The notes: generated from the letters alone by a model not told the origin. Numbered from the stretch's first letter, positions 14,025 to 60,660 are shown. The stretch: DNA of 64,000 nt from a virus (IMGVR_UViG_3300037067_006949:1-64000), one strand, 5' to 3'. Translations and numbers: made by a program.

Positions 14025-16046
14025 TTATACGTTAACGCGCGTCAATATATGGTTAACGCATAACGGTTAACGGTTAACAAAAAATGATTAACAAATAACA
14101 GTTATAAAATAGTAATTTTATGATAAAAAATTATAACCAAAAAATAACCGTAAAACGTGTAGGAAGGCTTTTCAACTTTAAAGGTATAAACATGCCAACA
14201 TACCATTTTTAAAGCCTTGCAAGCCTTCCTGCGAGATTCTTAAAATATAGAACACGCCAGAATAACAATTCATTCTATAAAATCGTATTCAAAAAATGAT
14301 CATTTTAGAAAATAACCTTAAAAAATTCTGTGTATTTAAAACCAAAAATTACCAAAAATTTTTAGAATTCTAATGTAATTTTCTATGATTTTTATGCTAC
14401 AATCTAATCAAGAAGAGAGAAAAAACAGAATAACATAAAATCCATATTTTAAGCAGAATGGGAGAAAATAAAATGACTAAAGAAAATTACGTTATAGGCG
14501 ATAAAGTTGAAAACATAGTAGAATTAACAATTGACAATCTAGAAAATACTATTATCCCCGTTGGTACTACATTAAGAATCGTTGCAATTGCGCCTAAGGT
14601 ATGCATGATGAAAAAAGATTTATATCATGACGGATTACCAAATTTTTTTAATGCCGTTATATTCGATCAAGAGAATGATTATTATAATCGCATTCGCGCT
14701 AATTTTTGTACGATTAGGAAAGCGCAATAACAGTATTATAATTTTATCCAATGGCTAGAATCAACGTGTAACACGTAATGCGCATTCTAGCCATCCAATA
14801 AGGTTATAATCTTGTAGCCAGTATAACGAAGGGATAAAACAGAATGCCAAAAAATGTTATAAATGAAAAAACATATATTCCAAAAAGAATCTGGATTATG
14901 CCAGAATATGGCCAACCATGGGCGGCGGACGTATTAAGAACGTATGACAATAACACTATTGCTATAGTGCATCCAGATAATGCGCAGGAAGATGATACAA
15001 GAAAAATCGACCTTGAAAATACAGGATGGGCAAGTTTAGACAATAACCAGGATAAAATAGAATGAAAAAATCAATTAACAAAAAATGGCAATTGAATACC
15101 AATGAGGCGCGAAGGTATAACCGGAAAATTGAACGGATCAACAAACAAGAACGGTTAAAATTTTTGACAACGATTAAATTTTAATTCGATCATATAACAG
15201 GATGTTTAAAATCCATCCTGTTATAAAATGGAAGTAAAATTTAAAGAATGGAAAAAAAATAATGTATACCTTGAATAAAGAAAAAACAGAATTATATTAT
15301 ATATGAGGAAATAGACGCGGAATTATACTTAAATGATAGCGGATTAATCGACGTTGAAAAAAGCGGTTTAAAGACTATATAATTTTTGAATGGAGAATAA
15401 ACAAAATGAAAACAGAATTAAAGGATTTTATAAAATCTCATTATCTTGAAAATTGTAAACAAAAACATTACAATCTAAAATCATCCGAAGAGGTTATTAA
15501 TTGGTTTTTTAACAGGTTCGACAATTTTAATAACTATGTAAATTTTCTTGAGAGTCATAATAGCTATTTTCACGCGGTAACAAAAAATCCGCAAGTAGAA
15601 TATGCATGTCAGAATTCAGGACTTGATTATTTTTATATCATAGGATTAATTGAATTTTGGTGTAATCAGAATAACACGCCAATGTATAACGCATAAAATA
15701 AAGATTTTAAGCATAACAGGAGGGCTTAAAAAATGGCTGACAAACAGTTTGAAAAACGCGGTAATAAAGCATATTTAACATATTCTGATTATGATTTTTT
15801 CGAACCAAGAATCATTATATCATTATGGGAGATTAAAAATTTAGATATCACGTTATTACCAGACAATCCATTTATTTATAAAAATAACGGTTTATATTTT
15901 GCAAAAACAGAATATAAAGATTATCCGCTTTATATTGAAGACTTACCAACATTAACAGAATTCATAACAGTTAAACCGCCAAGAAAAGGCGGTTATAGAT
16001 GGAATAATGGAGAATGGAAAAGGATATAACAGAATCTTAAAAAATG

Positions 16047-16074
16047 TTGACAACCGCTTAAAACGGCTTATAAT
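16047..16074 (+). promoter_or_regulatory. Sigma70-type promoter
   Basis: TTGACA-16-TATAAT. Confidence 0.7.
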
Positions 16075-17237
16075 GAATATAACAGACAATAAAAAATGAA
16101 TGAGGAGAAAATAAAATGACTACAGAATGCAAAATTAAAGCCCATGTATTGATTTTGAAAAGCAAAATTGATTTAAATGGCAATAGCTACTATTCTTGTA
16201 TAATTACAAGAACATCCGACGGAAAAATGGCACGTGGTCAAATATCCGGCGGAGAATCTAACGTAACCTATGCAATGCGCGTATATTTTGACAATTGGGA
16301 ATCTTTTATTTATACGGTTCAAGAATTGCCCAAAAGGGAATACAATAGATTAACAAAATCATTCCCATATATCGGATGTACTCCAGACGAGATTAACAAA
16401 AATATTGATAGTCAATGGGAAGGTTAACCCATGCGAAAATTAAACCGTAGACTTAAAGGTTTTTTAAACAATTTAATTCGACCTTCACAGAACGACAAGA
16501 TTTTAAACCATGCTACAATGGCTATACGGATCATTGAACGCGGATGCATAACAGAACACGAAACAAGCATCTTAACCAATTTGGGATATAAAGAAGCATA
16601 ATAAAATAAGCATTTTAAGCATGAAGGAAGGGTAAAAATGAAAAAATTCTATGTATACGTTCAAAAATGGAAAGTATACGAATTAATAAAGGTTATTGAA
16701 TGCAAAGACAAGCAAGAAGCATATAACGGATATTCATACCTTGATTATTCCGGTATTCAAAGACTGATAATTAAAACTAAATTAATGACTGGTTTAAACG
16801 TCGAAAACGGAGACTATAAAGAATGAATTACAGAATAGCCCATAAATTAGGACGGTTAAGAAGCGGAGCGGATCATACAGGAATTGTAACCCATGCGGTA
16901 ATTGGTAATAATGCCCTATGCGGTAATAATCCTAATAAAAAATCTGTTGGATGGTCAGAATATGACGATAAAATTTTAACATGCGAAAAATGCTTAAGAA
17001 TTGTTAATAAAGATAAATGGGTTATGGTTTATCATTCAGACAATTATTATTATTGGAAACACGCGGAAGGCTTTTATAATTGTACAACTGAAAATAAACC
17101 ACCATTAACAGAATCAGGATATCAATTCATAATCGCATTGGCTAGTTTAAAAAATGAAGATTACATTCATATTAACATAATGCGCGAAGAGAAGATATAA
17201 CAGAACGCTAAAAAATGTTAACGAACCTTAAAAAATG

Positions 17238-17265
17238 TTGACAATGGTTAATAACGTGCTATAAT
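17238..17265 (+). promoter_or_regulatory. Sigma70-type promoter
   Basis: TTGACA-16-TATAAT with TG extension. Confidence 0.75.
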
Positions 17266-18832
17266 TAAATTAACAAAATCAGAGAAGAGGAGATTAAAAA
17301 ATGAATAAACAGGCTAAAGAAAATTACGTTAGAACGTTTACGATTTTCATGAAAGAACATACATCTAATTTATCAATTGGTCAAATGATTGACATTTTGG
17401 AAAAATTACACTTTTACGAATCAAGATTATCGAACCTTAATACTCAGTATGCTAACGGCGATATTCAGGAAGAAGAACACACAAAAAAAACCGCATCCAT
17501 CGAAGCGAAGGTTAAGATAATTGCTGATCAGCTTGGTTTTAAGGTAGACTTCCAAAACGATCCGCGAGGCGCGGCTATCATGTTCTACCTTCCATCAAAA
17601 ACGTATAATTCTTGGGATGGGGAGTCCTGGCGCTTGTTTTGGTAAAATTTTACCTTCATCATGTAACCGGGGTTTATAACGAATTCCGGTTACAAAATGA
17701 GAATAAAATTTGAGGAAGGATAAAATAAAATGGATAAATGGATTATGGAAGTTAAGGTATATAACACAGAAACGCTAAAATGGGAATGGGCAGCGGTGCG
17801 TCCTTCCGGTGGCAAGCAATACGAATACAACACAAAAGAAGAGGCCACAAAGATGATAAATTTATGTTATGGCTCTTTATCAAATGATCAAGCACGAATT
17901 AGAAAAATACAATAAAACTTTTATGCGCGATAGAGAAGGATAAAATAAAATGGATGACTTTTCAAAACAAGAAAAATACATGCAAAAAGAATTTGACAAG
18001 TATTTTGAGATAATCACAGAATATGCAAAACAAGAATTTAACAAAAATGTTTTGCCATATGTGAAAAAATATTCTTTAATCTTTTTATCTGGTAATGGCA
18101 CTTATTATATCGGATATACAAAGAACGCGCCAAAATGGTTTATTAACAAGTATAAAAACTGGTCTGGTAATGATGAAGACTCAGAATGGGAAGGTCAGAT
18201 TAACAGAGATAAATTGCCGATCAAGTTATTATATAGTTTGAATAGTGTTATTCCGGCTTATGATTATTGCTTAGGTTCGATCATGCCAAATTATCAACCG
18301 GAAAAATCAGAATAAAATACATATTTTAAGTAATATCAAGAAGGATAATAAACCATGGAAGAAGAATTATACGAATTACAGGACGAATTAAAGGACGCAA
18401 AAACAGGACATGATTTTATAAATGTTTTGTTGGATAGAAGGGATAAAGATAAAAATACATCAAGTCAAACAATGAAAAACAATAACATGTTTTATATTAT
18501 CGGTGTAGTTGATGCATTATATTATTCTAAAAAGATAACACAGGAAGAGTACACGAATACGATCAAATATTTTGGATTGTAAAATAATCTCATTAATCCA
18601 ATAAAATCTATGTTTTATGCAAGGGAAAGGATATAACAGAATGTCATTTATAATCAACAATCATAAAATCAAATATAACAGATTTTTCAAGTTATGGAAT
18701 GTATCATACAATCCAAAAGATAAAAATGATCAAATGTTTGGATACCCATGCGGAAGTTTTAAAAAACTATCTGACGCGATAACAGAAGCAATTAACGGAT
18801 AATCCATACTCAAGATAACCGGAGGATCAAAA

Positions 18833-19393
18833 ATGTCAAAAACTATAACAGATTTACAAAAAGAATTCACGGTCAAAAATGGCCTCATTCAAAATCCAGG
18901 AAAATTTGAGAATGAGCCATTAAGCACGCCATTTTATTATGACTTGATGTTAAATGGTGAAGGAGAATTTATTGATATTGAAATTTCAGACCGCGTACAA
19001 TTCCCCAATATTCCAAATGATAAGCAGATTGCTTATGTAACAGAAGACGATCAAGGATTTGTAAGTATTGAATTTCTTGATGTCGAAGAAGAAGAATCTA
19101 TTTTTGATGATGATATTGAAGGAGAATCGTCATTTGATAAGGATCAGGACGAAGAAGAAGACTTAACCATGGATAACCAATACTTTACTTATAAGAACGG
19201 TATTATTAAAGTCAAGATCAATGCTGATATGAGTAACAGGACGCTATCAGAGATTAACACCATAACAGATATGTTAAATGATGTTTTGCATCCTATTAAT
19301 TGTCAAGCGGTTTTGAAAGATAATCAATTATGCTTTTATGATGGTATGGGCTATTACCCTATTGATGAACATTTTGACACAACAATTTATTAA
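18833..19393 (+). CDS. Acidic hypothetical protein
   Basis: 186 aa with a long D/E tract; GGAGG RBS. Confidence 0.65.
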   Translation: MSKTITDLQKEFTVKNGLIQNPGKFENEPLSTPFYYDLMLNGEGEFIDIEISDRVQFPNIPNDKQIAYVTEDDQGFVSIEFLDVEEEESIFDDDIEGESSFDKDQDEEEDLTMDNQYFTYKNGIIKVKINADMSNRTLSEINTITDMLNDVLHPINCQAVLKDNQLCFYDGMGYYPIDEHFDTTIY

Positions 19394-20809
19394 CAGATAA
19401 AATATACATTTTAAGCATAACAGAAATGATACAAAGGAGATATAAGATGGAATCTTGGACTGGCGGAAAAGTTACTTGTACGCAAAGAAAATATTTTCTC
19501 AGTTTGCATCCAGATGCAAAACATATGTTTAAATATATTGGTCATGGCAAATATGAAATGACCGGATGGGAATCTCAAATAGAAAGAGCAAGATGGGTAA
19601 AATGAAAACAAAAGAAGAAATACAAGATCAAATTAATTTGTATAAATATTACATTGAACAATGGCGACAAGAAAACGAAGTACAATATTGGTATGAGATA
19701 AAAACCTCAGAAAGAATTGTACAAGAATTAGAATGGGTTTTAAATATAACAAATTGAAACATAATAAAAGATATATTTTAAGTATACGTTCTATCAAAAT
19801 GCGAATATTTTAAGGTAATTTTCTACAATTCATGATCAAAACGTGCTACACTGTTAGTATAACAGAACGCAAAAGGAGAACACAAAATGGATTGGGCATT
19901 ATTCGGATATAAGAAAAATGATAACTTTGGCGCTTTTTTGGGAGAATCAAAGACAAAAGAAGGGCTAAAAATTTTAGAAGAAAAGGCGAAAATGCAAGGT
20001 TATATTAAATTCCAATATTCGCATTTTGATGGATCAAAACCGGATTTTACCAAAACGATTAACACTGAAACAAAGGGAGAATAAAAATGTGTAAATCATG
20101 TGAGGTATTGTATATCAATGGTGTAAAATGCCATGAAACAGGATGCCCTGAAGCATGGAAAGATGAAAAACACGAATGCGCATGGTGCGGTCAAGATTTT
20201 GAACCAGAATTTGACGGTCAGAAATGTTGTTCTGAGTCATGCAATAATGCTTATAACGGATATCCTGAACCTGACGACGAAGAAGATCAAGAATGAAAAA
20301 ATGGGTAATCCTGGCACGTCATAACTGGTTAAGCGAATGTACCATAACAGAAAGCTATTCAACAAACAATAGTTATATTAGAAGGTTTACGGCAACGATC
20401 AAAGGATGGCGAAATTTCAAAATTTATGAGGGTACAATTTCTCATAACACAATTCAAAAAATTATTGCGCAAGTGCGATATATCAGAGATAGAATCGAAA
20501 AGGAAGACGAATCCATTTTTACAGAAAACACAATGATAACAGAATTGGAGGAATGAATGCCATTATCAGGACAAGATAAAATATATAATTCTAATAAGTC
20601 AAATATTGACTATGTTTATGATCATGTTCTTGAGACGCTAAACCTCAAAGAATCTAATATGACTCCATATCAGAATCAAGAACTGTTAACGGATTTGGTA
20701 TGGTTAGTATGGGCAACGTTGAATAAACCGGAATAAAATTTAGTGTAATGTTCTATTGTATGTTCTATAATAAATGTGATACACTAATAGTACGAAAGGA
20801 GATACGCAA

Positions 20810-29930: not shown

Positions 29931-30003
29931 GCCCTTGTAGCTCAATTGGATGAGTGCTCGCCCTCTAAGCGAAGGGATATAGGTTCAAGCCCTATCAGGG
30001 GCA
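29931..30003 (+). tRNA. tRNA-Arg(TCT), atypical (C33, one anticodon-stem mismatch, no CCA)
   Basis: GCCCTTG/CAGGGGC acceptor; TAGCTCAATTGG D-arm; GGTTCAAGCCC T-arm; loop CCTCTAA. Confidence 0.75.
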
Positions 30004-33399: not shown

Positions 33400-34491
33400 A
33401 TGTCGTCATTGATTGTAAAGATTTGTAAAGTTGAAAACGTTACCAAACATCCGAATGCTGATAGGCTGTCAATAGCTACTGTGGGCGGTTGGAATTGTAT
33501 TGTTGGTCTTGATCAATACAAGACTGGAGATAAGGTTGTTTTTATTCCTCCCGATTGTGTTATTCCAAATAACCTAATTGAGAAATATAATCTTGAATAT
33601 TTAAAACACAATGGTCGTACCGGAACGGTAAAGCTTCGCGGTTACATTTCTCAAGGTTTGATTTTGGATGTTCCAGAAGGCAGTTGGAAAGTGGGAGATG
33701 ACGTTGCTAATGCCATGGGCATTACAAAATATGAACAGCCAGAGCCCAAATTCTCAATTGGCGGCGCAAGACAATCAACCAAGAGGAAACTAAATCCGTT
33801 GTTTGATAAATACACTGATATCGAGAACATTAACAACTTCAATGACGTGTTTAAAGATGGTGATCTGGTGGTTGTAACCGAAAAAATCCATGGATGCAAT
33901 GGCAGATGGTCTTTGTTACCAATTGCATATAGTAACAAATTACCGTTGATTGAAAAGATTAAGTTTGTATGGAATAAATATATCCTAAAAAAGAAATTTG
34001 AATTTGTATATGGTAGCCATAACGTTCAGTTGACTAGTGATTCAAGAACTAAAAACTTTTATGGCGATGATGTTTGGGGAAAAATTGCGAAGAAATATGA
34101 TCTGGCAAATAAAATTTCAGAAAACACTATCGTTTATGGCGAAGTTTATGGAGAGGGAATTCAAGATTTGACTTATGGTTTGAAGGGCATTGACTTTGCA
34201 ATATTTGATATCAAACGTGATGGGATATATTTGAATTGGGAAGAGGTTGTAAATTATTGTATTCAGCATGGTCTGCCTAATGTTCCTATGATTTCCTGTA
34301 ATGTGAAATTTGATAAAAACAAATTGAAAGATTGGACTGACGGAAAATCGTTTGTTTATAAGGAACAGTTTCGTGAGGGGTGTGTCATTAAACCGATGAT
34401 TGAAGAAAATGATCCTAGAATTGGCAGAAAGATTTTGAAGAGTGTGAGCACAGAATATCTTACTCGCAAGGGTGGAACAGAATTTCAATAA
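33400..34491 (+). CDS. RNA ligase, DRB0094/Rnl2 family, with N-terminal tRNA-binding OB fold
   Basis: HPNADRL; TEKIHG (motif I); YGE; FDI; REGCVIK; K.VS.EYL. Confidence 0.88.
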   Translation: MSSLIVKICKVENVTKHPNADRLSIATVGGWNCIVGLDQYKTGDKVVFIPPDCVIPNNLIEKYNLEYLKHNGRTGTVKLRGYISQGLILDVPEGSWKVGDDVANAMGITKYEQPEPKFSIGGARQSTKRKLNPLFDKYTDIENINNFNDVFKDGDLVVVTEKIHGCNGRWSLLPIAYSNKLPLIEKIKFVWNKYILKKKFEFVYGSHNVQLTSDSRTKNFYGDDVWGKIAKKYDLANKISENTIVYGEVYGEGIQDLTYGLKGIDFAIFDIKRDGIYLNWEEVVNYCIQHGLPNVPMISCNVKFDKNKLKDWTDGKSFVYKEQFREGCVIKPMIEENDPRIGRKILKSVSTEYLTRKGGTEFQ

Positions 34492-36305: not shown

Positions 36306-36801
36306 AATTCGAGTTTTAAGCAGATTTAAGGAGAAAATATGAAAATAGAAAAGAATTTTGTTACATTTTTAAGCCCAGGGACATTTTTTAGCGAAGAAAC
36401 AGTTAAAGAAATTGATTCTTGGGACGTAAATAAGGCGGTAGAAATGTCTAAAAATATTGTAGAACGTTATGATGCAACGCCTTATGCGTTTTATTTTACG
36501 ACTCGTGCTAGAGATGATTATGATCTTGATAGTAAACAGATTGATGAAAGCGTTATATATTATCTGGGCGGTGAAATTCGTAGTTTGAAAGACGTTGAAT
36601 TAGAGCTTAATCCAGACAATAATATTCTTATTGAAAATATGAGAAACAATGGTTACAAAAGAGTAATTACCAATTCTGGAAAGTGGAAGAGTGTGCATCC
36701 ACTTAAGGACGGCGATATTGTTTTACAGTATTAAAATTTACATAAAATCTTAGTTTTAAGCATAACACATAGAATTTCAATTTTAAGTAAAGGTGGTTTT
36801 C

Positions 36802-41326: not shown

Positions 41327-42011
41327 CGTGACTATTAAGTGGAAAATATTCTTATTTTTTAGCGACATATCTAGATGGATTTACCGTTTGATATGGAAAA
41401 TATGTCATATAAGGTTGTATAAAAATCCAGAGAAATATATACCAAAGGATATGCCATATTGTTATGAATACACTGGAGAAATGATTACCAGATCAGTACC
41501 GTGGGGATTAGATCAATGGGGAAGAAAAAGATTTATTGATGCTTCTTTTACAGAAACTAAGCCTTGCATTTTTCACAAAAATTTATGGAATTTAGATTTA
41601 TGTATGTTTAATGGAAGTGATTGTTGCATGGATTCTTGTAAAACTTGCGGAATAAATGACTATTTAGATTAATTTTCATAAGGAGATAAAATGAGTGCTG
41701 ATACCGGAATTTATATTGCTAAATTTCCAGAAGGTTATAGAGTAACCGAAGTCGTTCAATGTATTGAAAATGTTTATTATTATAATCCTGGCACAAAAAG
41801 ACGTAAAAAAGAATTGGAAGCATATTTTGGCAATAGTGAAGTTTATCCGACGCGAGAACTTGCGTCTAGTAAGGCTTGGAAAATCTATGATGAGTACAAT
41901 CGTGAAGAAGAAGATTCTGGGATGGGATGCCCAATCGAATATGGCATTAGCTATATTGGTGAATATGAAAGTTTTGAATAAAACTGGCATTTTAAGCAAA
42001 TTTGGAGGATA

Positions 42012-43043
42012 ATGAATTATAACGAAATTATAAATACACATTATACAATTTTGGAATCTTTACCTGAAGAAGAAATTTATAATGTTGTTACAACTTTGAT
42101 TGAACATTATCGTGAATACGGATTTCCTTATTTTGAAATAGATAAAAATAAAATTAAAAAAGAATACAAATCGTTATCGAAATCTGATTCTTCAAAAATA
42201 GAATTGCCAAACAATGAATTGCAACAAGGAATGTTGGGATTGGCTACTTGTAACATGTTTCATCCAGAAATGTACTCTACGCATTGTAAAAGCGCCAAAT
42301 CTCCTATGGACGTATTTTTAGATGATAAGTTGTTTAGGGTTGCACTTATAAAAAGAATAAAATATAATGATCGTAATATCAATCCTTCATGTGTACGCAG
42401 AACCCTAACAGCTTTTGGTGCTCAAGCGGTTTCCAATTTCCGCCCATCTATTGCGAAATGGGTATATCAAAAATATTGTCTTTCAGGCGGTAAAGTTTTA
42501 GACCCATGCATGGGTTATGGAGGAAGATTGATGGGCGCATTTTGTTCTCATGTAAGCTCTTACACGGGGGTTGATCCTAACCAAGATGCGTTCAATGGTA
42601 ACAAAAATCTTTATCAAAGTTTGGTTGACTCTGCTGAAAATAACGTTTATCCAAAAATGAATTTTTATAATTTGCCATTTGAAGATTTTGAAGAAGTTGA
42701 AAAATATAATTTAGTTTTTACTTCGCCTCCATATTTTAATATTGAAAAATATTCTAATGAAGAAACTCAATCTTATTTACGTTACCCGTTATATTCAGAA
42801 TGGCGAGATAAATTTTTAAAGATTTTAATCAGTAAATCTTTTGAATACTTAGAGAATGGTGGCTATCTAGTTTTGAATGTTGGAAAGCCCGTTGATGAAG
42901 ACACAAAAGAAATCGGATCGAGCATTTTTGGAAGGCATCCAGAAGTTTATCACATGAGATTGAGTAAGCTTCTTGGTCAAGGAAATAAATCGGATGTAAG
43001 TCATAAAACGGAGCCAATATTTGTGTGGCAAAAACTTACATAA
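42012..43043 (+). CDS. DNA amino-methyltransferase
   Basis: NFRP..AK; LDPCMGYGGRL SAM-binding loop; FTSPPYF. Confidence 0.85.
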   Translation: MNYNEIINTHYTILESLPEEEIYNVVTTLIEHYREYGFPYFEIDKNKIKKEYKSLSKSDSSKIELPNNELQQGMLGLATCNMFHPEMYSTHCKSAKSPMDVFLDDKLFRVALIKRIKYNDRNINPSCVRRTLTAFGAQAVSNFRPSIAKWVYQKYCLSGGKVLDPCMGYGGRLMGAFCSHVSSYTGVDPNQDAFNGNKNLYQSLVDSAENNVYPKMNFYNLPFEDFEEVEKYNLVFTSPPYFNIEKYSNEETQSYLRYPLYSEWRDKFLKILISKSFEYLENGGYLVLNVGKPVDEDTKEIGSSIFGRHPEVYHMRLSKLLGQGNKSDVSHKTEPIFVWQKLT

Positions 43044-43333
43044 AAATTACATTTTAAGTAAAAAATAAGGAGAAAAAATGTTAAATATTACTTATGATTC
43101 AAATAGACCCATTGAAGAAGGGCAATATTATGTTGAACTTGCTTATTTTGTTGATGGCGGATATGGGGCGTCACATTTAAACAATTTGGGATATTGGTGC
43201 GATAAAGAACATTTAAAAGAGGCAATTGTAAAACCAGCACTAAAAGCTGTCAGCAATGACATTTTGGATAAAATTTTAGATTAAAAATCTAATAAAAGAA
43301 CGCTTTTATGTAAATTTTGAAGAGGAGGAATTA

Positions 43334-48156: not shown

Positions 48157-50458
48157 CAGTTTTAAGTAGGTTTATAATAGGTGGCAACAGAAAAGGTAAA
48201 GGTTATGGTGATGGAAATCAATTATAAAATAGATTATGAAAAATGCCTAAAGAATAATTTTAGGAATGACGTAGCAAAGGCGGTAAGATTTTGTCTAAAT
48301 CAAGGAGAAGAGTTTAAATATTCTGTTGACGATTTTGGCGGTTTTATCTTATATCCCCATGCTTTGAATCCGTTCTTGAAAGTCATGGAAACTCTAAAAG
48401 AATCAAAGAACATTGTAATTTTACCAAGCTTTAACAATGATTCTAATGAAGAATTGAATGCTCCGGCGTATTTGATATTGAAGATTGGCGGAGATGGATT
48501 TGTAACAAATATTGTTACAACAAATATGTAATTAAAAAATAGGTTGCCACCTATTCTAAATTTATAGGAGAATAATGACAAAAACTGAATATTGGAAGGT
48601 TATGGCAAAGAACTCTCTTGATGATCCGTTTTGGGGAACGTCAGACAGAATCCAAAATGAACGACTTGCTTACGACTTGTATTTTGAATTTTTAGATAGA
48701 TTCAAATATTTAAAAATGATTCACTATATATCCGCAGAAGATGTTGTTATAGCAAATTATAATATGGAGGGAAATGAAGCGAATTAAATCAATTTCAAAG
48801 TTTTCAAAAGAACTTACTGAATCTATTAATAAACTTGACGAAAATAAATTAGATGAATTGATCAAAGATAGTGCAGAAACCGCAAACTCAGATGATTGGT
48901 GGGTGGAAAAGCGGATTGCGGAGATAGTTTGGGAAATCGCCATGAATGAGAAGAACATTAGAGAGGATGCAATTGCGTATTCATGAACGGTTTGATTACA
49001 TAAAAGAGAGATTCTATTAGGTTTTTAAGGAGAAACAATGAAACATTTTGAAGAAGAAGGGCTGTATGCTGAAGTTAAGGATGACAAATTAATTATTTCA
49101 ATTCCATTAGATGTTCTTGAAGCATCTCAAAAATTTAGAGATAATGTAACTTATAATATTATTGATAAAGACGCTATGGGTGCTTATTTTGCAGATGAAA
49201 TTTGTTGGCATGCAGATAGTGTTGGCGATGAAGAAGTTGGAGCTAGTGTTCTTACAAACCTGATTGATGAAATATTTGATTATGCTTATGAATATGGTGA
49301 GACCTGGTTGGAGAATCCAGATTATGATGAGAATGGCGAAAGTTATGAGTGAATAATGAAAAATATTAATGAAGAATTTGGAAAAGAATTTTCAAAATTA
49401 ATGAAAGATGGTAATGATTCTTGGCACGACTTATGTAAACAGGTTAAATTTTTGAATGACCTTCCAGAATTGCTTGATCTAGAAGTCTGCAAACAATTAG
49501 AAAACGCACACTTAGATATATATAAATCCGCTATTGAAGTAGCGGAGGTTGCATTGCAATCTAGTCGTTTATATCGAGATTTATGTATTATAAACGAATC
49601 TTTTACCGAAGACTCTGAAGATTCTAAATGACAACAGCATTTCCAACAGAGTCAAAATGTCCAGATTGTGGGCATTAGAAATTGAGGAAAAATGAAAAAA
49701 TATGAAATAATAGCCATTGTCAATAGCGAATATAAAATTTGTTTTAATATAGAATGTGATAATATTGAATATTATGAAAATACGCTTATTACTGATGGAG
49801 CGAAAATAATATTTAATAACAAAGAAAAGTTGGATGGTAATGTTGCAGTAGAAATTGAAAAAATTTATGCCACAGGCGAAAAAGAAATTAATTATAATAT
49901 TACGGCAAAAGATTTTTTTGTAGTTTCGAAACATGGGAAGGCCTAATAAAATCCGACTTTCATGTAAAAATTAAGGAGATAAAATGGAAAAACCAATTAT
50001 GATAGAATCGCCAGATTTATTATCATTACGAAAAATATGTCAAGAATATATAGATAATATTGCCAACAATGAATATATTGATGATGATTTTGGACACTAT
50101 GTTCTTGAATGCGCCTTAGAAGCATTTTTTGGAAAAGATGTTTGGAAATTCGTAAATCATAAAGAATAATAGTTTATTAAATTATAGAAAGCGAGATAAA
50201 ATGAATGAATCAGAGGCGTTGTTACGAAGCGCTTATCAAATCGCCAGTAGAAATGGTGAAGATACTAATTGGGAGGCGTTCAAGAATAGTCTAGAAAAAG
50301 AATTATTAGAAAGCAAGGGTGTAAAATATCCATGCGAGGACGAACAATTAGTATTAAGGGCAACATGCACCGCTAGGATTTATAAAATTTCTCCTAGTGA
50401 ATAACATAAAATGAAGTTTTTAAGCATAGAATCATTCTTTCAAACAGGATTATACGAG

Positions 50459-50679: not shown

Positions 50680-50714
50680 CAAAATATTGATTGTATGGTA
50701 ATATCAATATATAT

Positions 50715-50789
50715 GGTGAATGTGGCGAAATTGGCAAACGCGCCGCTCTGTGGATGCGGATATTGAGAGTTCAAGTCTCTTCATTCACC
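50715..50789 (+). tRNA. tRNA-His(GTG) with encoded G-1
   Basis: G-1:C73; GTGAATG/CATTCAC; TGGCGAAATTGG; loop CTGTGGA; GTTCAAGTC; own promoter at 50676. Confidence 0.85.
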
Positions 50790-50790
50790 C

Positions 50791-50819: not shown

Positions 50820-50856
50820 TATAGTATAAATAAGAAGGTAATCAAAGGAGAATAAT

Positions 50857-51753
50857 ATGTTCAAAGAAATGCAAGAATATTTTGACACATTAGAAATTGA
50901 TAAATCACGCCATACAGTAAGAAGTTATCGTACGTCATTGAATGTTTTTGTTCGTTATTTTGACATTCAATCTGCTAATGATATTAATAAAATTACAGAG
51001 TCAAATATTCAAAGCTATTTGAATATGCTTGCTTCAAAATCAACTGCTAAAAATTCCAATACCGCAAAAGCAAGTGCTAATGCAAACTTTCGTGTAGTTA
51101 AAGCATTTTTGAATTGGATGAAAACCAAGGGCTATATAGAGTCTTCTCCGGTTGGAACGGTTCATAGATATAAAGAAGCCAAGCACATTGGCACGATTTT
51201 CAGCAAAGATGAACGCGATAGAATCATTATGTCAACAAAGAAACGCCCAAGCTTGCAAATGATGATGACACTGATGTTTTATACAGGACTTAGAGCAGAA
51301 GAATCAATAAATGTCAAGGTAAACGACATTCAAAATGGAGTATTGAAAGTTCATGGCAAGGGTAATAAGGAACGCGAATTGGCTCTTACGCCATTTGTTA
51401 TCGGCGTGATCAACAATTATTTGAAGAATAGAATGCGCGATTCAGAATATCTTATCACGTCAATGCGTGGTGGGCACCAAATAACCACTACTTCGGTTTT
51501 GGAAAGAGTCAAAGTGGCTTGTAAAATGGCTGAAATTGACGAAGATAAAATCAACAACATCGGTGCGCATTCAGTTAGACGTAGCTTTGCTTGTTTTCTT
51601 TTGATGGATGGGTGGTCAACATTTGCAATCCAGAAGGCTTTGGGGCACGAATCCCCAATGACTACTGATCGTTATGTAGAACCAGCAAAATCGCTAACCG
51701 CAACTAAAGCGCTTTTAGGTCAATCCGCACCATCATGGTATAAGGAGAATTAA
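50857..51753 (+). CDS. XerC/D-like tyrosine recombinase
   Basis: S.HT.RSY; TGLR..E; GKGNKER; HSVRRSFA; LGH....T.RY. Confidence 0.92.
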   Translation: MFKEMQEYFDTLEIDKSRHTVRSYRTSLNVFVRYFDIQSANDINKITESNIQSYLNMLASKSTAKNSNTAKASANANFRVVKAFLNWMKTKGYIESSPVGTVHRYKEAKHIGTIFSKDERDRIIMSTKKRPSLQMMMTLMFYTGLRAEESINVKVNDIQNGVLKVHGKGNKERELALTPFVIGVINNYLKNRMRDSEYLITSMRGGHQITTTSVLERVKVACKMAEIDEDKINNIGAHSVRRSFACFLLMDGWSTFAIQKALGHESPMTTDRYVEPAKSLTATKALLGQSAPSWYKEN

Positions 51754-54440: not shown

Positions 54441-54808
54441 TGAAAATATTTTTGATTTGTCCGGTAAGAAATGCAACAGAAAACCAAAAGAAAAGAATGA
54501 TAGAATATATTGAAGAACTTGAATCCGAAGGCAACAAAGTCCACTATCCGGCAAGAGACACAAAGCAGGAAGATTCAACTGGCGGTTGGAACATCTGTAC
54601 TACAAACAAAAACGCAATCTTGGAATCAGATGAAGTTCATATCTTTTGGGACGATAAGAGCACAGGTAGCCTATTTGATCTAGGAGTTGCATTTGGTGCA
54701 CACAAGAGGCTTGTGGTGGTCAATCCAGAGGCAATAGATACATCTAACACAAAATCTTTCCATAACGTCATTAATTATTGGAATAATTTGAACTCGCTTA
54801 AAAACTAG
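54440..54808 (+). CDS. Nucleoside 2-deoxyribosyltransferase-like protein
   Basis: KIFLICPV; V.YP; N..AI..SD; S.GS.FDLG.A. Confidence 0.6.
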   Translation: MKIFLICPVRNATENQKKRMIEYIEELESEGNKVHYPARDTKQEDSTGGWNICTTNKNAILESDEVHIFWDDKSTGSLFDLGVAFGAHKRLVVVNPEAIDTSNTKSFHNVINYWNNLNSLKN

Positions 54809-55580
54809 ATTTTAAGTAAAATGGAGATAGATATTGCAGCAAACAACTGGTCGTTTATATAAAATGCCGTTGCCAAAATTGAACTCAGATATGATAAATG
54901 AATTAATCAACATTTCCCAAAAATTGTGCCATACGGATATATCTTTGGGCGACATTGAAGGGGCGGATGAAGACGGTTATTATAAAGATTTATTTTTGTG
55001 CTTTTACATTTAAAGGAGAAATGAAATGATTTCTGAAAAAGTAAATCAGATTGATGTAAAATGCGCCTGTGGCTGTAGTACATTAGAGATTACGCAGTGG
55101 TATGAGAAAGACAAGGCGCAAGAAGTGTGGATTTCTAATAAAATGCGATCTATAAATGCATATTATCATCCTGGTTTTTATCGGTTTTTAGAACGAATTA
55201 AACTTATTTGGGCGATTATTCGCGGAAAAGAATATTATTTCTATGAATTGGATTTGAACAAGAAACAACAAATCGTTGATTTCAAAAATGCAGTAGCCAA
55301 ATTAGACGAAAATATTGAAGAATATAATAGAGGATTTTAATTAATATGAAGCATAGCAGTCGTGGTTTTAGCAAGAAGAAGTTGTTCCCAAATGCAGTTC
55401 GTATTACGAACGTGGAGGGGAAAAGGGTGTGGTCTTTTGACGGAAAGGAATACGTTTCCTTGCGATCAATTCTCAATATGGTAATTGAAGAAGTTGACAA
55501 GACTAAAAAGAAACAAAAGGATGGTAATAAAACATTACAAAAACCTTGACAAAAAAGCAATTATGTGGTAAAGTTAAGAA

Positions 55581-55701
55581 GTCTTGACACGGTGAACAAT
55601 CATGGGAAGAGGGTGGTGGGGTCGTGGTAGGGAACGCCGGACGACTAACTACTAGCAATTCAGCACAAGACATGTCGGAAATAAATGTGCGAATACCGAC
55701 A
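55581..55701 (+). ncRNA. Unidentified structured RNA
   Basis: Promoter TTGACA-17-TAAAGT at 55546; GUCUUG/CAAGAC closing stem; GUCGU/ACGAC; UGUCGG/CCGACA; GC-rich and intergenic. Confidence 0.5.
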
Positions 55702-56240
55702 ATTGACATAAAAAGTATATTTTAAGCAGAAAGGATTATATGAGGTACGATTTCAATTCAAAGGCTATTGATGATCATATTCAGAATCAGTTTGATAACA
55801 TTATGCATGAGGCGATAATGAAAAATGTTGGCACATATTGGTTTGCTGATTATTGGGCGAACAGTAAACTCAAAAGCTATAAACCTAAGCAAATTATTTT
55901 CCAGCCCGATCTAAAAACGACGGTTGTAATTTGGGAAGACGATTCTAAGACTGTTGTTAAATGTTCGGCAGAAGAGCAGTTTGTCCCAGAGATTGGATTT
56001 GCTATGGCACTGGTTAAAAAGATTTTTCCAAATCGTAGCGAATTCTTGCGTATGATTGATGGCGCATATGTACAACCAGTAAGGAATAAAAAGACATCTA
56101 ACAAAAGCGTTCATGTTGTTGCAGATGATAGTGCCTCCGCCAAAGAACTTGGAGATGCAATTTTAGATTGCATTCGTAAAGTTAGTTATTTGTAACCCTT
56201 GACATATTGGTTATTGTGTGGTAATATTATATTTAATAGT

Positions 56241-56382
56241 ACGCACCGCGCGATAGGGAAAGCCTAGCGGACTAGGGTTGAGGTTGGACAGATCATCCAT
56301 AATTCCTTTTAGTTGATATACAACTAGCGTCATTATAAAGTGGTGCGCGGTATATCCATAGGGGAGAATTAATTTTCTCCCC
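56241..56382 (+). ncRNA. Unidentified structured RNA followed by a hairpin
   Basis: Promoter TTGACA-17-TAATAT at 56199; CGCACC/GGUGCG closing stem; CCUAG/CUAGG; UAGUUG/CAACUA; GGGGAGAA/UUCUCCCC. Confidence 0.5.
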
Positions 56383-56398
56383 AAGCATCCATCTAAAT

Positions 56399-56472
56399 GG
56401 ACTTATAGCTCAATGGTTAGAGCGTCCGTCTTATACGCGGCAGGTTTGGTTGTTCGAGTCAACCTAAGTCCA
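56399..56472 (+). tRNA. tRNA-Ile(TAT)
   Basis: GGACTTA/TAAGTCC; TAGCTCAATGGTTAGAGC; loop CTTATAC; GGTTG-TTCGAGT-CAACC; A73. Confidence 0.85.
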
Positions 56473-56494
56473 CAATAACAATAAGGATAATGAT

Positions 56495-57124
56495 TTGACA
56501 AATATCGTGGCGTTCTCCGATCTGCATGGTCAATATAGCAAAAAATTAACAAGATGGTTCAATGAACATCCGGCAGATATTTTATTGTTTGCCGGAGATT
56601 TACAACTAAATGGCTATGATGATGGGTCATTCTTTTTGCAATGGCTGAATAGTTTACCTTACAAACATAGGGTTATGATTTTTGGGAACCACGATGGCAA
56701 CTATGATTATACAATGGAAGAAGCTAAAAAATACACATCTATTCATATTCTAAATAATGAAAGTATCATTGTTGATGGAATAAAAATTTGGGGATCACCA
56801 TATTCAGTTCAATTTGGAGAATGGTGGTTTATGAAACCGGATAATGAATTATATGATATATATAAAAATATTCCCGATGATACTGATATAGTAATGACGC
56901 ATACTCCTGCATTTGGCGTATTAGATAAAACTATTGATGGAATAAATGCCGGAAGTATACAATTACGTTTTCGGATTGACGAATTGAACAATCTTAAATA
57001 TCATGTGGCGGCGCATATTCACGAAGGTTACGGAATGGAAAAGGGAACTGCCACGTTTATTAATTGTAGCATTCTTGATGAAAAATATAGATTAGTAAAT
57101 GATCCTGTGATGTTTGAAATTTGA
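56495..57124 (+). CDS. Calcineurin-like metallophosphoesterase
   Basis: SDLHG; AGD; GNHD; THTP; HIHE. Confidence 0.9.
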   Translation: MTNIVAFSDLHGQYSKKLTRWFNEHPADILLFAGDLQLNGYDDGSFFLQWLNSLPYKHRVMIFGNHDGNYDYTMEEAKKYTSIHILNNESIIVDGIKIWGSPYSVQFGEWWFMKPDNELYDIYKNIPDDTDIVMTHTPAFGVLDKTIDGINAGSIQLRFRIDELNNLKYHVAAHIHEGYGMEKGTATFINCSILDEKYRLVNDPVMFEI

Positions 57125-57151
57125 CATGAAATTGTATTTTTATGTAAGTTT

Positions 57152-57231
57152 ATTGGGCGGCGTGGCGCGACACGTAGTGGCGGAGTTCCGATCAAACCAC
57201 CGTGCTTCTCAGGTTGGAATCCTGACCCAAT
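57152..57231 (+). ncRNA. tRNA-like structured RNA
   Basis: ATTGGG/CCCAAT acceptor-like stem; TCAGG-TTGGAAT-CCTGA T-arm; extended central hairpin; no normal anticodon arm. Confidence 0.5.
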
Positions 57232-57237
57232 CAAATT

Positions 57238-57307
57238 GCTCCGATAGTTTAAGGGAAGAACCTACTTTTACTAGTAGAGATGGGCGTTCGGTTGCGCTCT
57301 CGGAGCA
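57238..57307 (+). tRNA. Degenerate tRNA (Val(TAC)-like, 6-nt anticodon loop)
   Basis: GCTCCGA/TCGGAGC; CTACT-TTTACT-AGTAG; GGGCG-TTCGGTTG-CGCTC. Confidence 0.5.
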
Positions 57308-57989
57308 AATTGAATAAAATCATACTTTTAAGTAAAAATCAAGGACATAAATGAATACGGTTGTATATGAATGTGGTTGCAGTATTTCATACAGTATGTA
57401 CGGAGATAAAGAGGTGCTTGAGGCTCATATGTGCGATCAGCATTCAAGAAAATATCCGAATATATTAGAAATAATTGCCAAGGTGATTAGAGAAATTCAT
57501 GCTTAAATTTATTATTTTAAACAAAAAAAATAAAAAAGGAGAAATATGTTAACAGTAAAAGTAAATATGGATAGTTTTTATTTTATGGAGGAAACTCCCT
57601 TTGTCCAGGTATTTGACAAATATGGAATGAATCCGTATATATCATATCAGTCTTCGCGTTCAAAGTATTTCAGAGAAGTAAAAGATGGCGAAATAACCAT
57701 TATGAATTCCAACGGGATTAAAATTGACGAAATTGATTTAAGAAAAGATAGCGATGGCATTCCCAAAGAAACGCCAGCTAAGGATGCATAAAAAAATGAA
57801 ATTAGTTGACATATCAGAATACAAAGATGACGGAATAATTTGGGATAATATCGCTGGTTATCCTATCCCATATATTTTTGTAAAACCCCAAGATATAGCT
57901 GACCCAATTGATGAGCGATTGATTACGATTTCTAAATTGCGAATTGAAATAGAAAATTTAAAAGACGAACTAAGGCGAAGAAGGAGAAA

Positions 57990-58394
57990 ATGGTGAACGC
58001 ATCAGAATTAGCAGAAAAAATGTTACTATGGGAAAGGAACAGAAGGTCGCTTGATGAACTGGAAAAAGAAATTCAAGAAGAAGTTTTAAAACTTCAAAAA
58101 ACACAAGTTGTTGGCGGATGTAGAGTAACATTCTCTGGCGGAAGAAATACCTATGATTATGAGACCGCCGGAAAAACAGCGCCTAAAGAAATTATTGAAA
58201 AGCATTCTACTGTTGTTGAAACAACTGATTGGAAGAGCGTTGTAGAACTAGCGAAGGTCGATCCCGATATTATTGAAGAATGCACAGTCAAAACAACCAA
58301 TGTTGATTACAAAGAGGTTTGCAAGGAATCTAAAATTGCTCCGATTATCTTATCAACAACCCCTCCGTCCGCATCAGTTAAATTGGAAAAATAG
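57990..58394 (+). CDS. Hypothetical protein with internal duplication (YDYE/TDWK/VDYK repeats)
   Basis: 134 aa; AAGGAG RBS. Confidence 0.6.
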   Translation: MVNASELAEKMLLWERNRRSLDELEKEIQEEVLKLQKTQVVGGCRVTFSGGRNTYDYETAGKTAPKEIIEKHSTVVETTDWKSVVELAKVDPDIIEECTVKTTNVDYKEVCKESKIAPIILSTTPPSASVKLEK

Positions 58395-58426
58395 TATAGA
58401 ATGCACATTTTAAGTTAAGGATTAAC

Positions 58427-59002
58427 ATGATTATTAAAGTATTAGAAGAACATGGATATCCAAGCGCAGCCCTAGGATTTTCTTTATCATACAATAGCGG
58501 ACTTGAAAGAGCAATGGAACTTTTGCCTAAATTTGCCTTTGGTAAATCTGGAGAAACAAAATTCCTTGAATCAATATATGTTTGGCTGGATGTAACTGCG
58601 CCGATTTTCATGTGGTCTGAAATGGATACATATCGTATCTCCACGAAACAGTCGGAAAGCACTATGCACACATTGACGAAACGTGTGTTGACACATGAAG
58701 ACTTTGAATGTCCAATATCAGATAACCTCTTGGAAGAGTTAAATCACGCAATCCATATGTACAAAACATGTCCAGCCAGCGAAACATTTGCAGAAGAAAA
58801 AAGAAAAATATTTCTTTTGATAAAAAATAATCTTCCATCTGGATTTCTTCAGAGAAGAATTTGGGTTATAAATTATCGAACTCTTCAAAATATTTATAAT
58901 CAGCGTCATGATCATAAACTTCCACAATGGCGTTATTTTTGCGAACAAATACTTGTTCAGGTAGAACATCCAGAATTTATACAGGAAAATTATGTGGCTT
59001 AG
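58427..59002 (+). CDS. ThyX-like (flavin-dependent thymidylate synthase fold) protein
   Basis: AP...W.E.DTY; SESTMH; LP.GFLQ.R....NY.TL.NIY.QR..HKLP.W. Confidence 0.65.
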   Translation: MIIKVLEEHGYPSAALGFSLSYNSGLERAMELLPKFAFGKSGETKFLESIYVWLDVTAPIFMWSEMDTYRISTKQSESTMHTLTKRVLTHEDFECPISDNLLEELNHAIHMYKTCPASETFAEEKRKIFLLIKNNLPSGFLQRRIWVINYRTLQNIYNQRHDHKLPQWRYFCEQILVQVEHPEFIQENYVA

Positions 59003-59231
59003 TTGGATCGCATCTGGACTCACACTGTTAGGAAACATTATTCTTATAGGCAATAAAAGTTGGAAATCATTCGTGATCTTTGCAATCGGTAATGCTATGT
59101 TTTCATATTACTGGTTTATAAGGGAAGAATGGGCAACTTTTGTTTTAGTGTTGGTGTTTCTTGCCCAAAATGTTTGGGGTTTGATCAAATGGAGAAATGA
59201 GTCTAAAAGGAGAGGAGCAATCAAAATATAG
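58992..59231 (+). CDS. Small membrane protein (PnuC-like)
   Basis: Three hydrophobic segments; WG...W. Confidence 0.5.
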   Translation: MWLSWIASGLTLLGNIILIGNKSWKSFVIFAIGNAMFSYYWFIREEWATFVLVLVFLAQNVWGLIKWRNESKRRGAIKI

Positions 59232-59305
59232 AAATTATATAGGTTATTATTGTTGAAATTTGTAGTTGAATATTATATTTTGAAATTATAAAGGAGAAAC
59301 AAAGT

Positions 59306-60247
59306 ATGGCTGAATTTTTAAAAGCAACAAAGGGCAAGAAACCTGTTCGATTAGTTCTAGGAGGCCCGTCTGGTTCAGGAAAAACATATACCGCATTAAC
59401 GTTTGCAAAATACTTACAATCCATTACTGGTAAACCTACCGCGGCAATTGACACAGAACATTATCGTATGAGCTTGTATGCTGACAAATTTGATTTCGAT
59501 GTAAACAATTGGGAGCCACCTTTTGATCCGCGAGAATTGATTAAAACTATTCATGACGTAGAAAAGGCGGGATATGGTCAATTAATTGTAGACAGCAGTA
59601 CACACTTCTATAATTCTACTGGTGGCTTATTGGAGATTGTTCAGGATGCCGCGAAACAAAAATATGGTGGCAATCAATACGCAGGATGGGCTGTAGGGAC
59701 TCCAATTCAGGACGCTTTGATTGACGCAATTATTCGATCCCCTATTCATATGATCTTTTGTACTCGCGCAAAACAGGCATATGTTGAATCGGAAAAAAAT
59801 GGAAGAAAAACATATGAAAAGGCAGGAATGGAGCTTCAGCAAAGAGACGGTTGGGAATTTGATTTTGATTTCAGTTTGATTATGGATATGGACAATAATG
59901 CGAACGTTGCAAAAGGCATGGGGTATGTTCCAACCGGAGCGTACATCAAGAAACCAGACGAAAAAGCTATTGAGAAAATTATGAAATCAATCAGCGAAAA
60001 CACAACTGAAGAAGTGGCTATTCCTCCAGTGAAGTTTGTTGCGCCAAAACCAGAAGAGGTTTTGAAAGCAACTAAGACGAGCGTTGTTGAAAAATGTGTT
60101 TCTTTGGGCGGAAGCAAAAATGAAGCATTAATGGAAATTGTAAAATCATTTGAGCCATCTGGAAACCCAAACAAAATCAAGGACATCAATGTTCTTAATG
60201 AATTATTGGTTAAGTTATCAGAACTGGAAAAGAAAGGAATTGAATAA
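59306..60247 (+). CDS. AAA_24 ATPase, Sak4-like recombination protein
   Basis: GPSGSGKT; IDTE; VDS.TH; C.RAK; QRDG.E..FD; adjacent to SSB. Confidence 0.85.
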   Translation: MAEFLKATKGKKPVRLVLGGPSGSGKTYTALTFAKYLQSITGKPTAAIDTEHYRMSLYADKFDFDVNNWEPPFDPRELIKTIHDVEKAGYGQLIVDSSTHFYNSTGGLLEIVQDAAKQKYGGNQYAGWAVGTPIQDALIDAIIRSPIHMIFCTRAKQAYVESEKNGRKTYEKAGMELQQRDGWEFDFDFSLIMDMDNNANVAKGMGYVPTGAYIKKPDEKAIEKIMKSISENTTEEVAIPPVKFVAPKPEEVLKATKTSVVEKCVSLGGSKNEALMEIVKSFEPSGNPNKIKDINVLNELLVKLSELEKKGIE

Positions 60248-60633
60248 TGTCATTAAATATTAGTGATACACAAAGGGTTTCAGTTTGGACTATCGAAGAT
60301 CGTGAAAAGTTCGCTCTTGTTCAAATGTCTAGCTCTCGTAAAGATAAACAATCTGGAGAATACAAGAACACAAGTTGGGCATATGTTCGTTTTGTCGGAA
60401 CGGCGTATAGCAAAATTGCAACCGATGGTCTTGTACATGGGGATCGCATTGTTCTGAAGGGCGCAACCATTTCACAAGAACCATACTTGGTCGATGGGGT
60501 AAAAACATATCCGAAATATCCGCAAATCGTCGTTTTTAATTGGGAACATTATGTGCCCGATGGAACACAAGCGCCAAGCGGTATTGATGCGCCTCCACAA
60601 ATTGAGGAAGAAGACGAAGGGCTTCCGTTTTAA
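60247..60633 (+). CDS. ssb: Single-stranded DNA-binding protein
   Basis: SRKDKQ.GEY OB-fold; acidic tail ending in LPF. Confidence 0.8.
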   Translation: MSLNISDTQRVSVWTIEDREKFALVQMSSSRKDKQSGEYKNTSWAYVRFVGTAYSKIATDGLVHGDRIVLKGATISQEPYLVDGVKTYPKYPQIVVFNWEHYVPDGTQAPSGIDAPPQIEEEDEGLPF

Positions 60634-60660
60634 CATAAAATAATGCTTTTAAGTGAAACA

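Follow-up and report, generated by a model that had tools for sequence, protein, structure and literature searches.

Introduction

Recombination by Cre, Flp and lambda Int requires partner sites that share a 6-8-bp overlap. Among the heterospecific lox and FRT sites used with Cre and Flp, only those with the same centre recombine, and mixed centres keep the exchange in register and prevent deletions. Here we describe a 20-bp dyad site with a comparable layout, two inverted 7-bp arms around a 6-bp centre, which is repeated about 50 times in one orientation between small early genes of an uncultured virus (IMGVR_UViG_3300037067_006949). The window analysed is a stretch of 64,000 nucleotides (nt) that forms the first half of a contig of 125,426 bp. 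Hereafter, the genome holding the window is called G0, its 91-kb sister contig G1, and four metagenome contigs close to G1 are called L021-L024. We consider it the best reading of the data that each site is a fixed junction with an address of its own, placed between gene modules that can be exchanged. Clean swapping of unrelated genes at phage gene boundaries is a long-standing question, and the boundaries considered here carry a conserved site of the type that proteins recognize.

The present sites resemble heterospecific lox/FRT cassette exchange in their inverted arms and 6-8-bp centre, and in that the cargo is swapped while the sites stay. However, lox/FRT exchange was designed in the laboratory, uses 13-bp arms and has a proven enzyme, whereas here the arms are 7 bp long, 50-70 natural sites occur per genome and the enzymes are candidates. 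The dif and pdif sites have the same arm-6 bp-arm plan and also bound small modules, and the inner arm bases of the present site resemble their ATAA-N6-TTAT, but they are 28 bp long (11-6-11), are served by the host XerC/XerD and flank modules as inverted pairs. In contrast, the 7-6-7 copies of G0 are co-oriented, those of G1 are symmetric, and both occur at nearly every gene boundary with room for them. Integrons offer a further likeness, namely co-oriented, mostly promoterless small genes whose ends often lie within the site, with a tyrosine recombinase nearby; unlike attC, which measures 57-141 bp, acts in folded single-stranded form and travels together with its gene, the present site has 20 bp, shows no pairing constraint and is fixed.

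Repeats between phage genes have also been described. The PeSL elements of T4-type phages, which Arbiol et al. are said to have described in 2010, reportedly combine a sigma-70 early promoter with a stem-loop and recombine by homology. Like them, the present site is a short intergenic repeat around variable small early genes (hyperplastic regions), with mosaic junctions at the repeat, but the G0 element is neither promoter nor stem-loop and has a position-specific centre. The stoperators recognized by L5 gp71, in the cluster A mycobacteriophages, are asymmetric 13-mers that are read by a monomeric immunity repressor and have no variable centre, and we know of no link between them and mosaic junctions. 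Dozens of copies in short intra-operon gaps, oriented with transcription, are common to both, whereas the two half-sites of the G0 dyad are equivalent. Open-literature searches turned up SPBRE alone and no description of the element itself. SPBRE is an AT-rich dyad of similar size from the same phage group, co-oriented with transcription and often placed just before a ribosome-binding site, and its reader is a tyrosine-recombinase-fold protein, MrpR. In SPbeta, MrpR (YopR) acts purely as a repressor and gave 10 ChAP-seq peaks, all at SPBRE promoters (PMC10516654). Unlike SPBRE, all copies of which lie at sigma-A promoters and are bound by MrpR, the present dyad avoids promoters and is not among the MrpR peaks.

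A dyad site at the boundaries of small early genes

Exact matches to MATAAAA-N6-TTTTAAG numbered 24, against 0.03 expected from shuffled sequence, and 86 matches against 11 expected were obtained when up to two mismatches were allowed. An iterated weight matrix placed 63 sites in the 125-kb genome, of which 50 are plus-strand copies in the interval 14.1-60.7 kb and only about 7 fall in the 64-125 kb part, in good agreement with the original prediction, which had counted about 49 copies of a 7-6-7 quasi-palindrome. When an AT-rich intergenic null was used, 46 loose sites were found against 0.6 expected and 29 strict sites against 0.003, so that the enrichment persisted and AT-rich intergenic composition does not explain the motif.

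A site is present at 45 of the approximately 124 plus-strand gene boundaries, where the median gap is 37 bp, and about 49 boundaries overlap or are too tightly coupled (gap of 18 bp or less) to leave room for one. The copies lie between a stop codon and the next ribosome-binding site, as had been noted, and the left arm often supplies the stop codon: in 10 sites it is the TAA inside ATAAAA, and in most of the others the stop codon is 10 nt or less away. The next start codon usually follows 4-24 nt past the site. The asymmetry of the arms also follows transcription as claimed, because the copy at position 2756 is flipped on the minus strand, and so are 4 of the 7 copies in the minus-strand late region. 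Neither the RNA polymerase-like gene nor the primase-helicase gene contains a site, and both predicted tandem pairs with no gene between their members are present, although the 50425 member of the second is weak (Table 1). The 6-bp spacer, described earlier as variable in sequence, differs between all 62 G0 sites for which centres were compared.

Gene replacement between the sites in related genomes

The primase of G1 is 63% identical to that of G0, and G1 carries about 70 sites of the form AATRAAA-N6-TTTYATK directly before ribosome-binding sites. Colinearity between G0 and G1 extends to the blocks for replication, glycan and late functions, whereas the order of the shared small genes is fully scrambled. 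Contigs L021-L024 are mosaics of G1. Across the G1 family (L021-L024), 19 of 38 non-redundant homology breakpoints were located within 5 bp of a site, compared with approximately 11% expected (P = 5 × 10-9), a placement at the sites that supports the original prediction in part. Four genomes share a 1057-bp methyltransferase-like unit whose conservation runs exactly from one site to the next, with neighbours that differ on both sides, and the methyltransferase-like module of the window (sites 41977 and 43039) is the orthologue of this unit. The pair at 41534/41555 of G1, which is empty there, holds a 689-bp unit of two open reading frames (ORFs) in L021. The adjacent L021 sites 2210/2233 correspond to G1 sites 38096/39095, which are 1 kb apart in G1, and this indicates that tandem pairs are neighbouring addresses without cargo.

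The centres themselves were then informative. L021, L022 and L023 together have 40 sites, and for 30 of them a site with the identical 6-bp centre was found in the G1 array; all of these were colinear. At 16 of the 30 matched sites, no blastn homology was detected within 250 nt on either flank. Because the centres stay in order while the flanks are replaced, the sites behave as conserved islands, that is, as a fixed series of addresses with variable cargo. In addition, no two centres were identical among the 62 sites of G0 or the 72 sites of G1, where 2.4 and 2.5 duplicate pairs were expected, and pairs differing by a single mismatch were also depleted (18 against 31 expected in G0, 19 against 32 in G1). 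The earlier picture of a cassette array thus holds in part: units of one to three genes are gained, lost and replaced at the sites. Shuffling among the sites of one genome, which was also proposed, was not seen, since close relatives keep the site order.

A similar tendency was observed for cultured phages. When the early regions of SPbeta and phi3T were compared, 9 of approximately 29 breakpoints were within 14 bp of a site, although a site is present at only about 12 of 72 gene boundaries; this corresponds to a roughly 2.4-fold excess. The other relatives are metagenome contigs, a caveat that still applies, although mis-joins at a 20-bp repeat are unlikely and the cultured pair shows the same tendency. 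Taken together, these comparisons make it probable that the sites are preferred crossover points. Site-specific and short-homology recombination would both give junctions at either edge of the site, so that the position of a junction (left edge, right edge or inside the site) does not separate the two.

One junction deserves separate mention. The segments L024 3699-3760 and G1 34205-34266 belong to an alignment with 99.96% identity over 17.3 kb, and all six mismatches in the junction alignment are in its first 60 bp. The cluster lies in the part of the 5′ leader nearest the site and resembles a short patch that was exchanged separately beside it.

Architecture of the site

Inspection of the aligned copies gave a 7-6-7 plan in which the arms hold nearly all of the information and the centre little. 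Outside the arms only a weak signal was detected, at positions -7, -6, -4 and +19 to +22. To see how the two arms relate, we counted facing bases. At arm pair 0/17 of G0 (n = 50) we found A-A in 31 sites, A-T in 11, T-T in 5 and T-A in 3, and at arm pair 3/16 of G1 (n = 72) A-C in 25, A-T in 22, G-T in 19 and G-C in 6. The two arms therefore vary independently, without the covariation that pairing would impose, which is the signature of a dimer on duplex DNA; judged by sequence pattern, the site fits two equivalent half-sites for such a protein. On the same counts a hairpin of any kind (RNA, cruciform, attC-like or N4-like) was rejected.

A sigma-A promoter was rejected as well, because there is no -35 box or usable -10 spacing and no conserved signal upstream of -7. 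At least eight gaps of the array contain textbook TTGACA-16/17-TATAAT promoters, and all of these gaps lack the dyad site. The dyad is thus not the early promoter, since canonical promoters sit in other, dyad-free gaps. The preference for TTTTAAG over TTTTATG, from which the asymmetry of the site arises, can be explained by avoidance of ATG together with the added stop codon on the sense strand.

Beside these promoters we noticed a second short repeat, TAAAAAATGTT(G/A)AC, on the plus strand at 16038-16051, 17209-17222 and 17229-17242 (4 matches against 0.37 expected). The -35 boxes of the two perfect sigma-A promoters (16047 and 17238) overlap with it, and the repeat may be the true promoter-linked operator of the phage or an UP-like element.

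Distribution among other phages

The core TAAAA-N6-TTTTA was counted in other phages and in reversed controls. It was found 34 times in SPbeta (reversed control 2), 37 times in BUCT082 (0), 17 times in Psychrobacillus phage Perkons (2), 31 times in Clostridium phage c-st (7), 23 times in Bacillus phage Tsamsa (3) and 30 times in Geobacillus virus E3 (7). The SPbeta and BUCT082 copies likewise lie on stop codons ahead of the following gene, and some SPbeta sites are beside terminators and distant from the next start codon. The core was not enriched in PMBT24, TR-TP1 or 0305phi8-36, all of which have YonO-like genes; no enrichment was found in SEP9 or VFW and only a weak one in phiL47. Tsamsa and E3 gave no YonO-like match, and since both are rich in the motif, the occurrence of the site is not tied to the YonO-like polymerase. 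An HU-like protein as the specific reader was considered and rejected: members of this family occur in each of the five YonO-bearing phages that were tested, including three without the motif, and the family is uninformative for this reason.

Comparison with SPBRE

We rebuilt SPBRE from the promoters named in the MrpR study (PMC10516654), which gave approximately ATACAAAnAATATGTAT, with about 12 co-oriented copies in SPbeta. SPbeta therefore carries both SPBRE and the dyad core, as distinct sequences. In G0, three weak SPBRE matches were found against five in the reversed control, that is, SPBRE is absent. BLASTP gave no significant similarity to MrpR/YopR for either recombinase of the window, and none to YopP for recombinase 1. 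Because the ChAP-seq peaks are at SPBRE promoters only, MrpR leaves about 20 isolated TAAAA-N6-TTTTA copies of SPbeta unexplained. These findings count against the alternative given with the original prediction, an operator for a regulator of the MrpR/YopR type, as far as MrpR itself is meant.

Three SPbeta sites (NC_001884 positions 76171, 99498 and 129297) are close to SPBRE, upstream of aimR, yorE and yosX. The distance is approximately 5-13 bp at aimR and yosX and approximately 70 bp at yorE, and ChAP-seq peaks cannot separate the two elements there.

Candidate recombinases

The window was said to encode two recombinases with intact-looking catalytic residues, and full catalytic sets were indeed seen in both (Table 1). 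Recombinase 1 belongs to the YomM family, and YomM is among only nine G0 proteins that still match SPbeta by tblastn. Among the genomes tested, 7 of 8 motif-rich and 3 of 6 motif-poor ones have a YomM-like gene, a difference that is not significant and is confounded by relatedness. The gene of recombinase 2 lies behind a tRNA-His and a sigma-A-like promoter. Its best solved relatives are XerA, a Xer-like protein and XerD, and a match to IntI4 is weak and covers residues 103-178 only. No relatives of recombinase 2 were found among viral contigs.

The YomM-like family extends over 147 phage records (Bacillus, Staphylococcus, Lactococcus, Enterococcus and Geobacillus) and is widespread in large Bacillota siphophages. 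In Tsamsa and phiL47 the gene is directly upstream of the tape measure gene; in the window it is relocated beside an HNH endonuclease gene (4136-4921), near the RNA polymerase block.

Interpretation of the sites

How might the exchange proceed? In the mechanism that we propose, crossing over would take place at a site between two related genomes that share its centre, either those of co-infecting phages or those of a phage and a prophage. A phage tyrosine recombinase would catalyse it, with the YomM-like and Xer-like proteins of the window as candidates. The differing centres within one genome would prevent deletion between the direct repeats and would keep the exchange in register. A tyrosine recombinase is suggested because the 7-6-7 plan together with a need for matching centres would explain why centres are conserved and unique and why exchange is in register. 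The core features of a tyrosine-recombinase site are present, namely inverted arms, a 6-bp overlap, shared centres in partner sites and encoded enzymes with full catalytic sets. As far as sequence comparison reaches, the shared centres are consistent with the overlap-identity requirement, short of proof. That a site-specific recombinase performs the exchange is, in our estimate, quite possible at somewhat under an even chance, and the two proteins are candidates only. The wider proposal, that SPbeta-like and related large Bacillota siphophages have a natural cassette exchange with 35-70 numbered sites per genome, 7-bp arms read by a recombinase of the YomM family and centres as addresses, by which co-infecting relatives would swap accessory genes in register without losing their own, is put forward tentatively.

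Several observations weigh against recombinase-mediated exchange at addressed sites. The arms are only 7 bp long and almost pure A/T, shorter than those of Xer, Cre and Flp sites. Two arms with the same centre provide 20-26 bp of identity, which would favour same-address crossovers by general or annealase recombination too. Most of the roomy boundaries in the G1 array carry a site, so that breakpoints which selection restricts to gene boundaries would often coincide with one anyway; the G1 breakpoint statistic is strong when compared with random positions and only modest when the null confines breakpoints to gene boundaries. Support for addresses was obtained from SPbeta and the sister lineage, and close relatives of the window did not contribute to it. 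As for the candidate enzymes, the YomM-bearing phages SEP9, VFW and phiL47 show little or no motif enrichment, and c-st is enriched yet gave no YomM match. In the YomM proteins of SPbeta and BUCT082, HxxK takes the place of HxxR, and their C-terminal Tyr aligns ambiguously. Recombinase 2 is just 32% identical between G0 and G1, whose arms are nearly alike.

The alternative that survives best takes the site to be where a non-catalytic dimeric protein docks (a regulator, an architectural protein or a roadblock resembling a stoperator, possibly with a recombinase fold as MrpR has). Gene swapping would then be a by-product, in which the conserved 20-26 bp act as short homology for the annealing or general recombination system of the phage. 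The symmetry of the site suits a dimer on duplex DNA, and its placement between cistrons inside operons, downstream of separate sigma-A promoters, is as expected of roadblocks. The sites are also crowded in the early region, which has to be silenced in a prophage, and few in the late region. SPbeta provides the precedent of a recombinase-fold protein that purely represses (PMC10516654), and the HxxK of SPbeta and BUCT082 YomM points the same way. Matched centres lengthen the identity and would give same-address crossovers without a special enzyme; the array also encodes an AAA_24 protein of the SPbeta YorG family, which is perhaps a candidate catalyst of short-homology recombination under this alternative. 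Docking, however, gives no reason for the exact retention of a centre when both flanks are replaced, as at 16 of 30 sites, or for centres that are over-dispersed within a genome, and double crossovers on 20 bp of homology would need to recur very often. Moreover, the sites do not overlap sigma-A promoters, MrpR itself is found only at SPBRE promoters, and one pair of sites flanks a tRNA-like gene and not a cistron. We regard docking as a close rival, slightly less probable than a site-specific recombinase.

The original prediction itself preferred an analogy with integrons or pdif modules, in which a gene with its site is a mobile unit that the encoded recombinases excise and re-insert within and between genomes. 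The co-oriented array of small promoterless genes with stop codons often inside the site, the intact tyrosine recombinase inside the array and the scrambled gene order between G0 and G1 would agree with this. The analogy nevertheless failed on the central point, because a site stays in place with its own centre while its cargo changes, so that sites are positional and do not travel. After excision between two flanking sites a single site would be left behind, in conflict with the tandem pairs observed; a 20-bp site with frequent A-C and A-A oppositions, free of pairing covariation, is not a folded attC; 7-6-7 differs from 11-6-11, and modules are not enclosed by inverted sites. Among solved relatives, recombinase 2 is, in addition, nearest to XerA/XerD, with a weak and partial match to IntI4. 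Mobile cassettes of this kind are very unlikely.

An element acting in the polycistronic mRNA, where a hairpin or a protein-binding motif would steer processing, stability or translation of the next cistron, would account for the tight placement from stop codon to ribosome-binding site (which the site abuts in G1) and for an asymmetry that tracks transcription. That asymmetry is already explained by ATG avoidance and the added stop codon, and the arms do not covary: their commonest opposition is an A-C mismatch in G1 and an A-A mismatch in G0, and a stem would consist of merely 5-7 A-U pairs. A reader of single strands needs no second arm in reverse complement, some SPbeta sites are beside terminators and far from starts, and one G0 site precedes a tRNA-like gene. 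We therefore consider a role in RNA highly improbable.

The motif is self-contained (about 27 bp), lacks a -35 box and ends 5-15 nt before the ribosome-binding site, as might a compact promoter or terminator for the YonO-like polymerase or a phage sigma factor, serving middle-class expression of the accessory genes. The promoter of YonO being still undefined (PMC5467207) speaks for this reading. In SPbeta, however, YonO starts at a single site upstream of yonK and is required only for the late operon (PMC5467207). The G1 consensus is essentially symmetric, conserved centres would be unexplained, and motif and polymerase occur separately, the motif without a YonO-like match in Tsamsa and E3 and the reverse in PMBT24, TR-TP1 and 0305phi8-36. 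On the SPbeta data and the presence and absence across phages, a YonO promoter was rejected, and we give a compact promoter or terminator hardly any credit. The idea that the dyad is the G0 equivalent of SPBRE, the operator of a master repressor of the MrpR/YopR type, draws on the like size and dyad character and on some SPbeta copies 5-30 bp away from an SPBRE, but is scarcely credible given that SPbeta has both motifs, that ChAP-seq peaks are confined to SPBRE with none at about 20 isolated core sites, that neither recombinase resembles MrpR/YopR nor recombinase 1 YopP, that G0 lacks SPBRE, and that the dyad avoids sigma-A promoters.

With 34 copies in SPbeta, a prophage of Bacillus subtilis 168, addressed exchange is directly testable with existing genetics. 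If a recombinase does act at the sites, genes would be exchanged in nature by a new route, which comes with ready-made orthogonal recombination sites, and a function would be given to the conserved recombinase that many large Bacillota phages carry in their tail modules. If docking were true instead, SPbeta-like phages would have a second genome-wide regulator besides MrpR, so far undescribed.

Features of the window and of its relatives

The layout of the window parallels SPbeta, with a minus-strand block that contains the polymerase followed by a long plus-strand early block, in which approximately 125 mostly tiny early genes occupy 14-64 kb. The YonO-like polymerase places G0 in the wider SPbeta-like group, although the polymerase is not tied to the motif. 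The window also codes for several DNA methyltransferases besides the two tyrosine recombinases. Coordinates are collected in Table 1.

Table 1. Features of the window, with positions counted from its first nucleotide
Feature	Position	Strand	Remarks
Array of about 50 co-oriented 20-bp dyad sites, (C/A)ATAAAA-N6-TTTTA(A/T)G	14103-60653	+	At boundaries of small early genes
Flipped copy of the site	2756-2775	-	At the stop codon of ORF 2766-3116, with the YomM-like recombinase one gene upstream
Tandem pair, 27 bp apart, no gene between ('empty')	36741-36787	+	Sites 36741/36768; read as an empty interval by analogy with G1 41534/41555
Tandem pair, second member degenerate (CATAGAA-N6-TTTCAAA)	50405-50444	+	Sites 50405/50425
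Example module: site, ribosome-binding site, 343-aa methyltransferase-like gene (42012-43043), site	41977-43058	+	Sites 41977 and 43039
Two sites (57125, 57313) around tRNA-like gene 57237-57308	57125-57332	+	Cargo not protein-coding
Canonical sigma-A promoter TTGACA-16-TATAAT	16047-16074	+	In a gap without the dyad site
Tyrosine recombinase 1, YomM family	3133-4158	-	R, HxxR, W and Y present; 27% identity to SPbeta YomM, 51% to the G1 copy
Tyrosine recombinase 2, Xer-like	50857-51753	+	Full R-K-H-R-H-Y set, aligned to XerA; inside the array
HU-family DNA-binding protein	5022-5333	-	Adjoins the RNA polymerase gene
YonO-like single-chain RNA polymerase	6170-8923	-	Pfam RdRP; 35% identity to Bacillus phage BUCT082, 27% to SPbeta YonO
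AAA_24 protein	59306-60247	+	Pfam family annotated on the phi3T YorG homologue; SPbeta YorG annotated as Sak4-like annealing protein
Primase-helicase gene	60715-62646	+	After the end of the array

Close relatives of the window were not found in a scan of genome contigs, and a megablast search with 12 kb of the array gave no match among phage records. A Logan contig encodes a protein identical to the G0 methyltransferase-like protein, with the same gene order. Contigs L011-L013, with primases approximately 70% identical, have just 0-4 sites and were uninformative for the comparison. Between G0 and G1 large blocks are rearranged too: a 13-kb glycan block follows dnaE in G0, and in G1 it is located upstream of the replication genes, cutting the small-gene array into three parts.

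Within the array, ARAGORN reported the tRNA-like gene at 57237-57308 as a tRNA of 72 nt whose anticodon (ta) is undetermined and apparently consists of two bases; the gene lies exactly between two dyad sites, as if it were the cargo of its own interval. Ordinary tRNAs are also present, for Arg-tct at 29931, His-gtg at 50716 and Ile-tat at 56399. The last site of the array is followed on the plus strand by a G+C-rich hairpin (GGGGAAGA...TCTTCCCC) at 60654-60714 and then by the primase-helicase gene, and this hairpin may be a terminator or attenuator that parts the accessory array from the replication operon.

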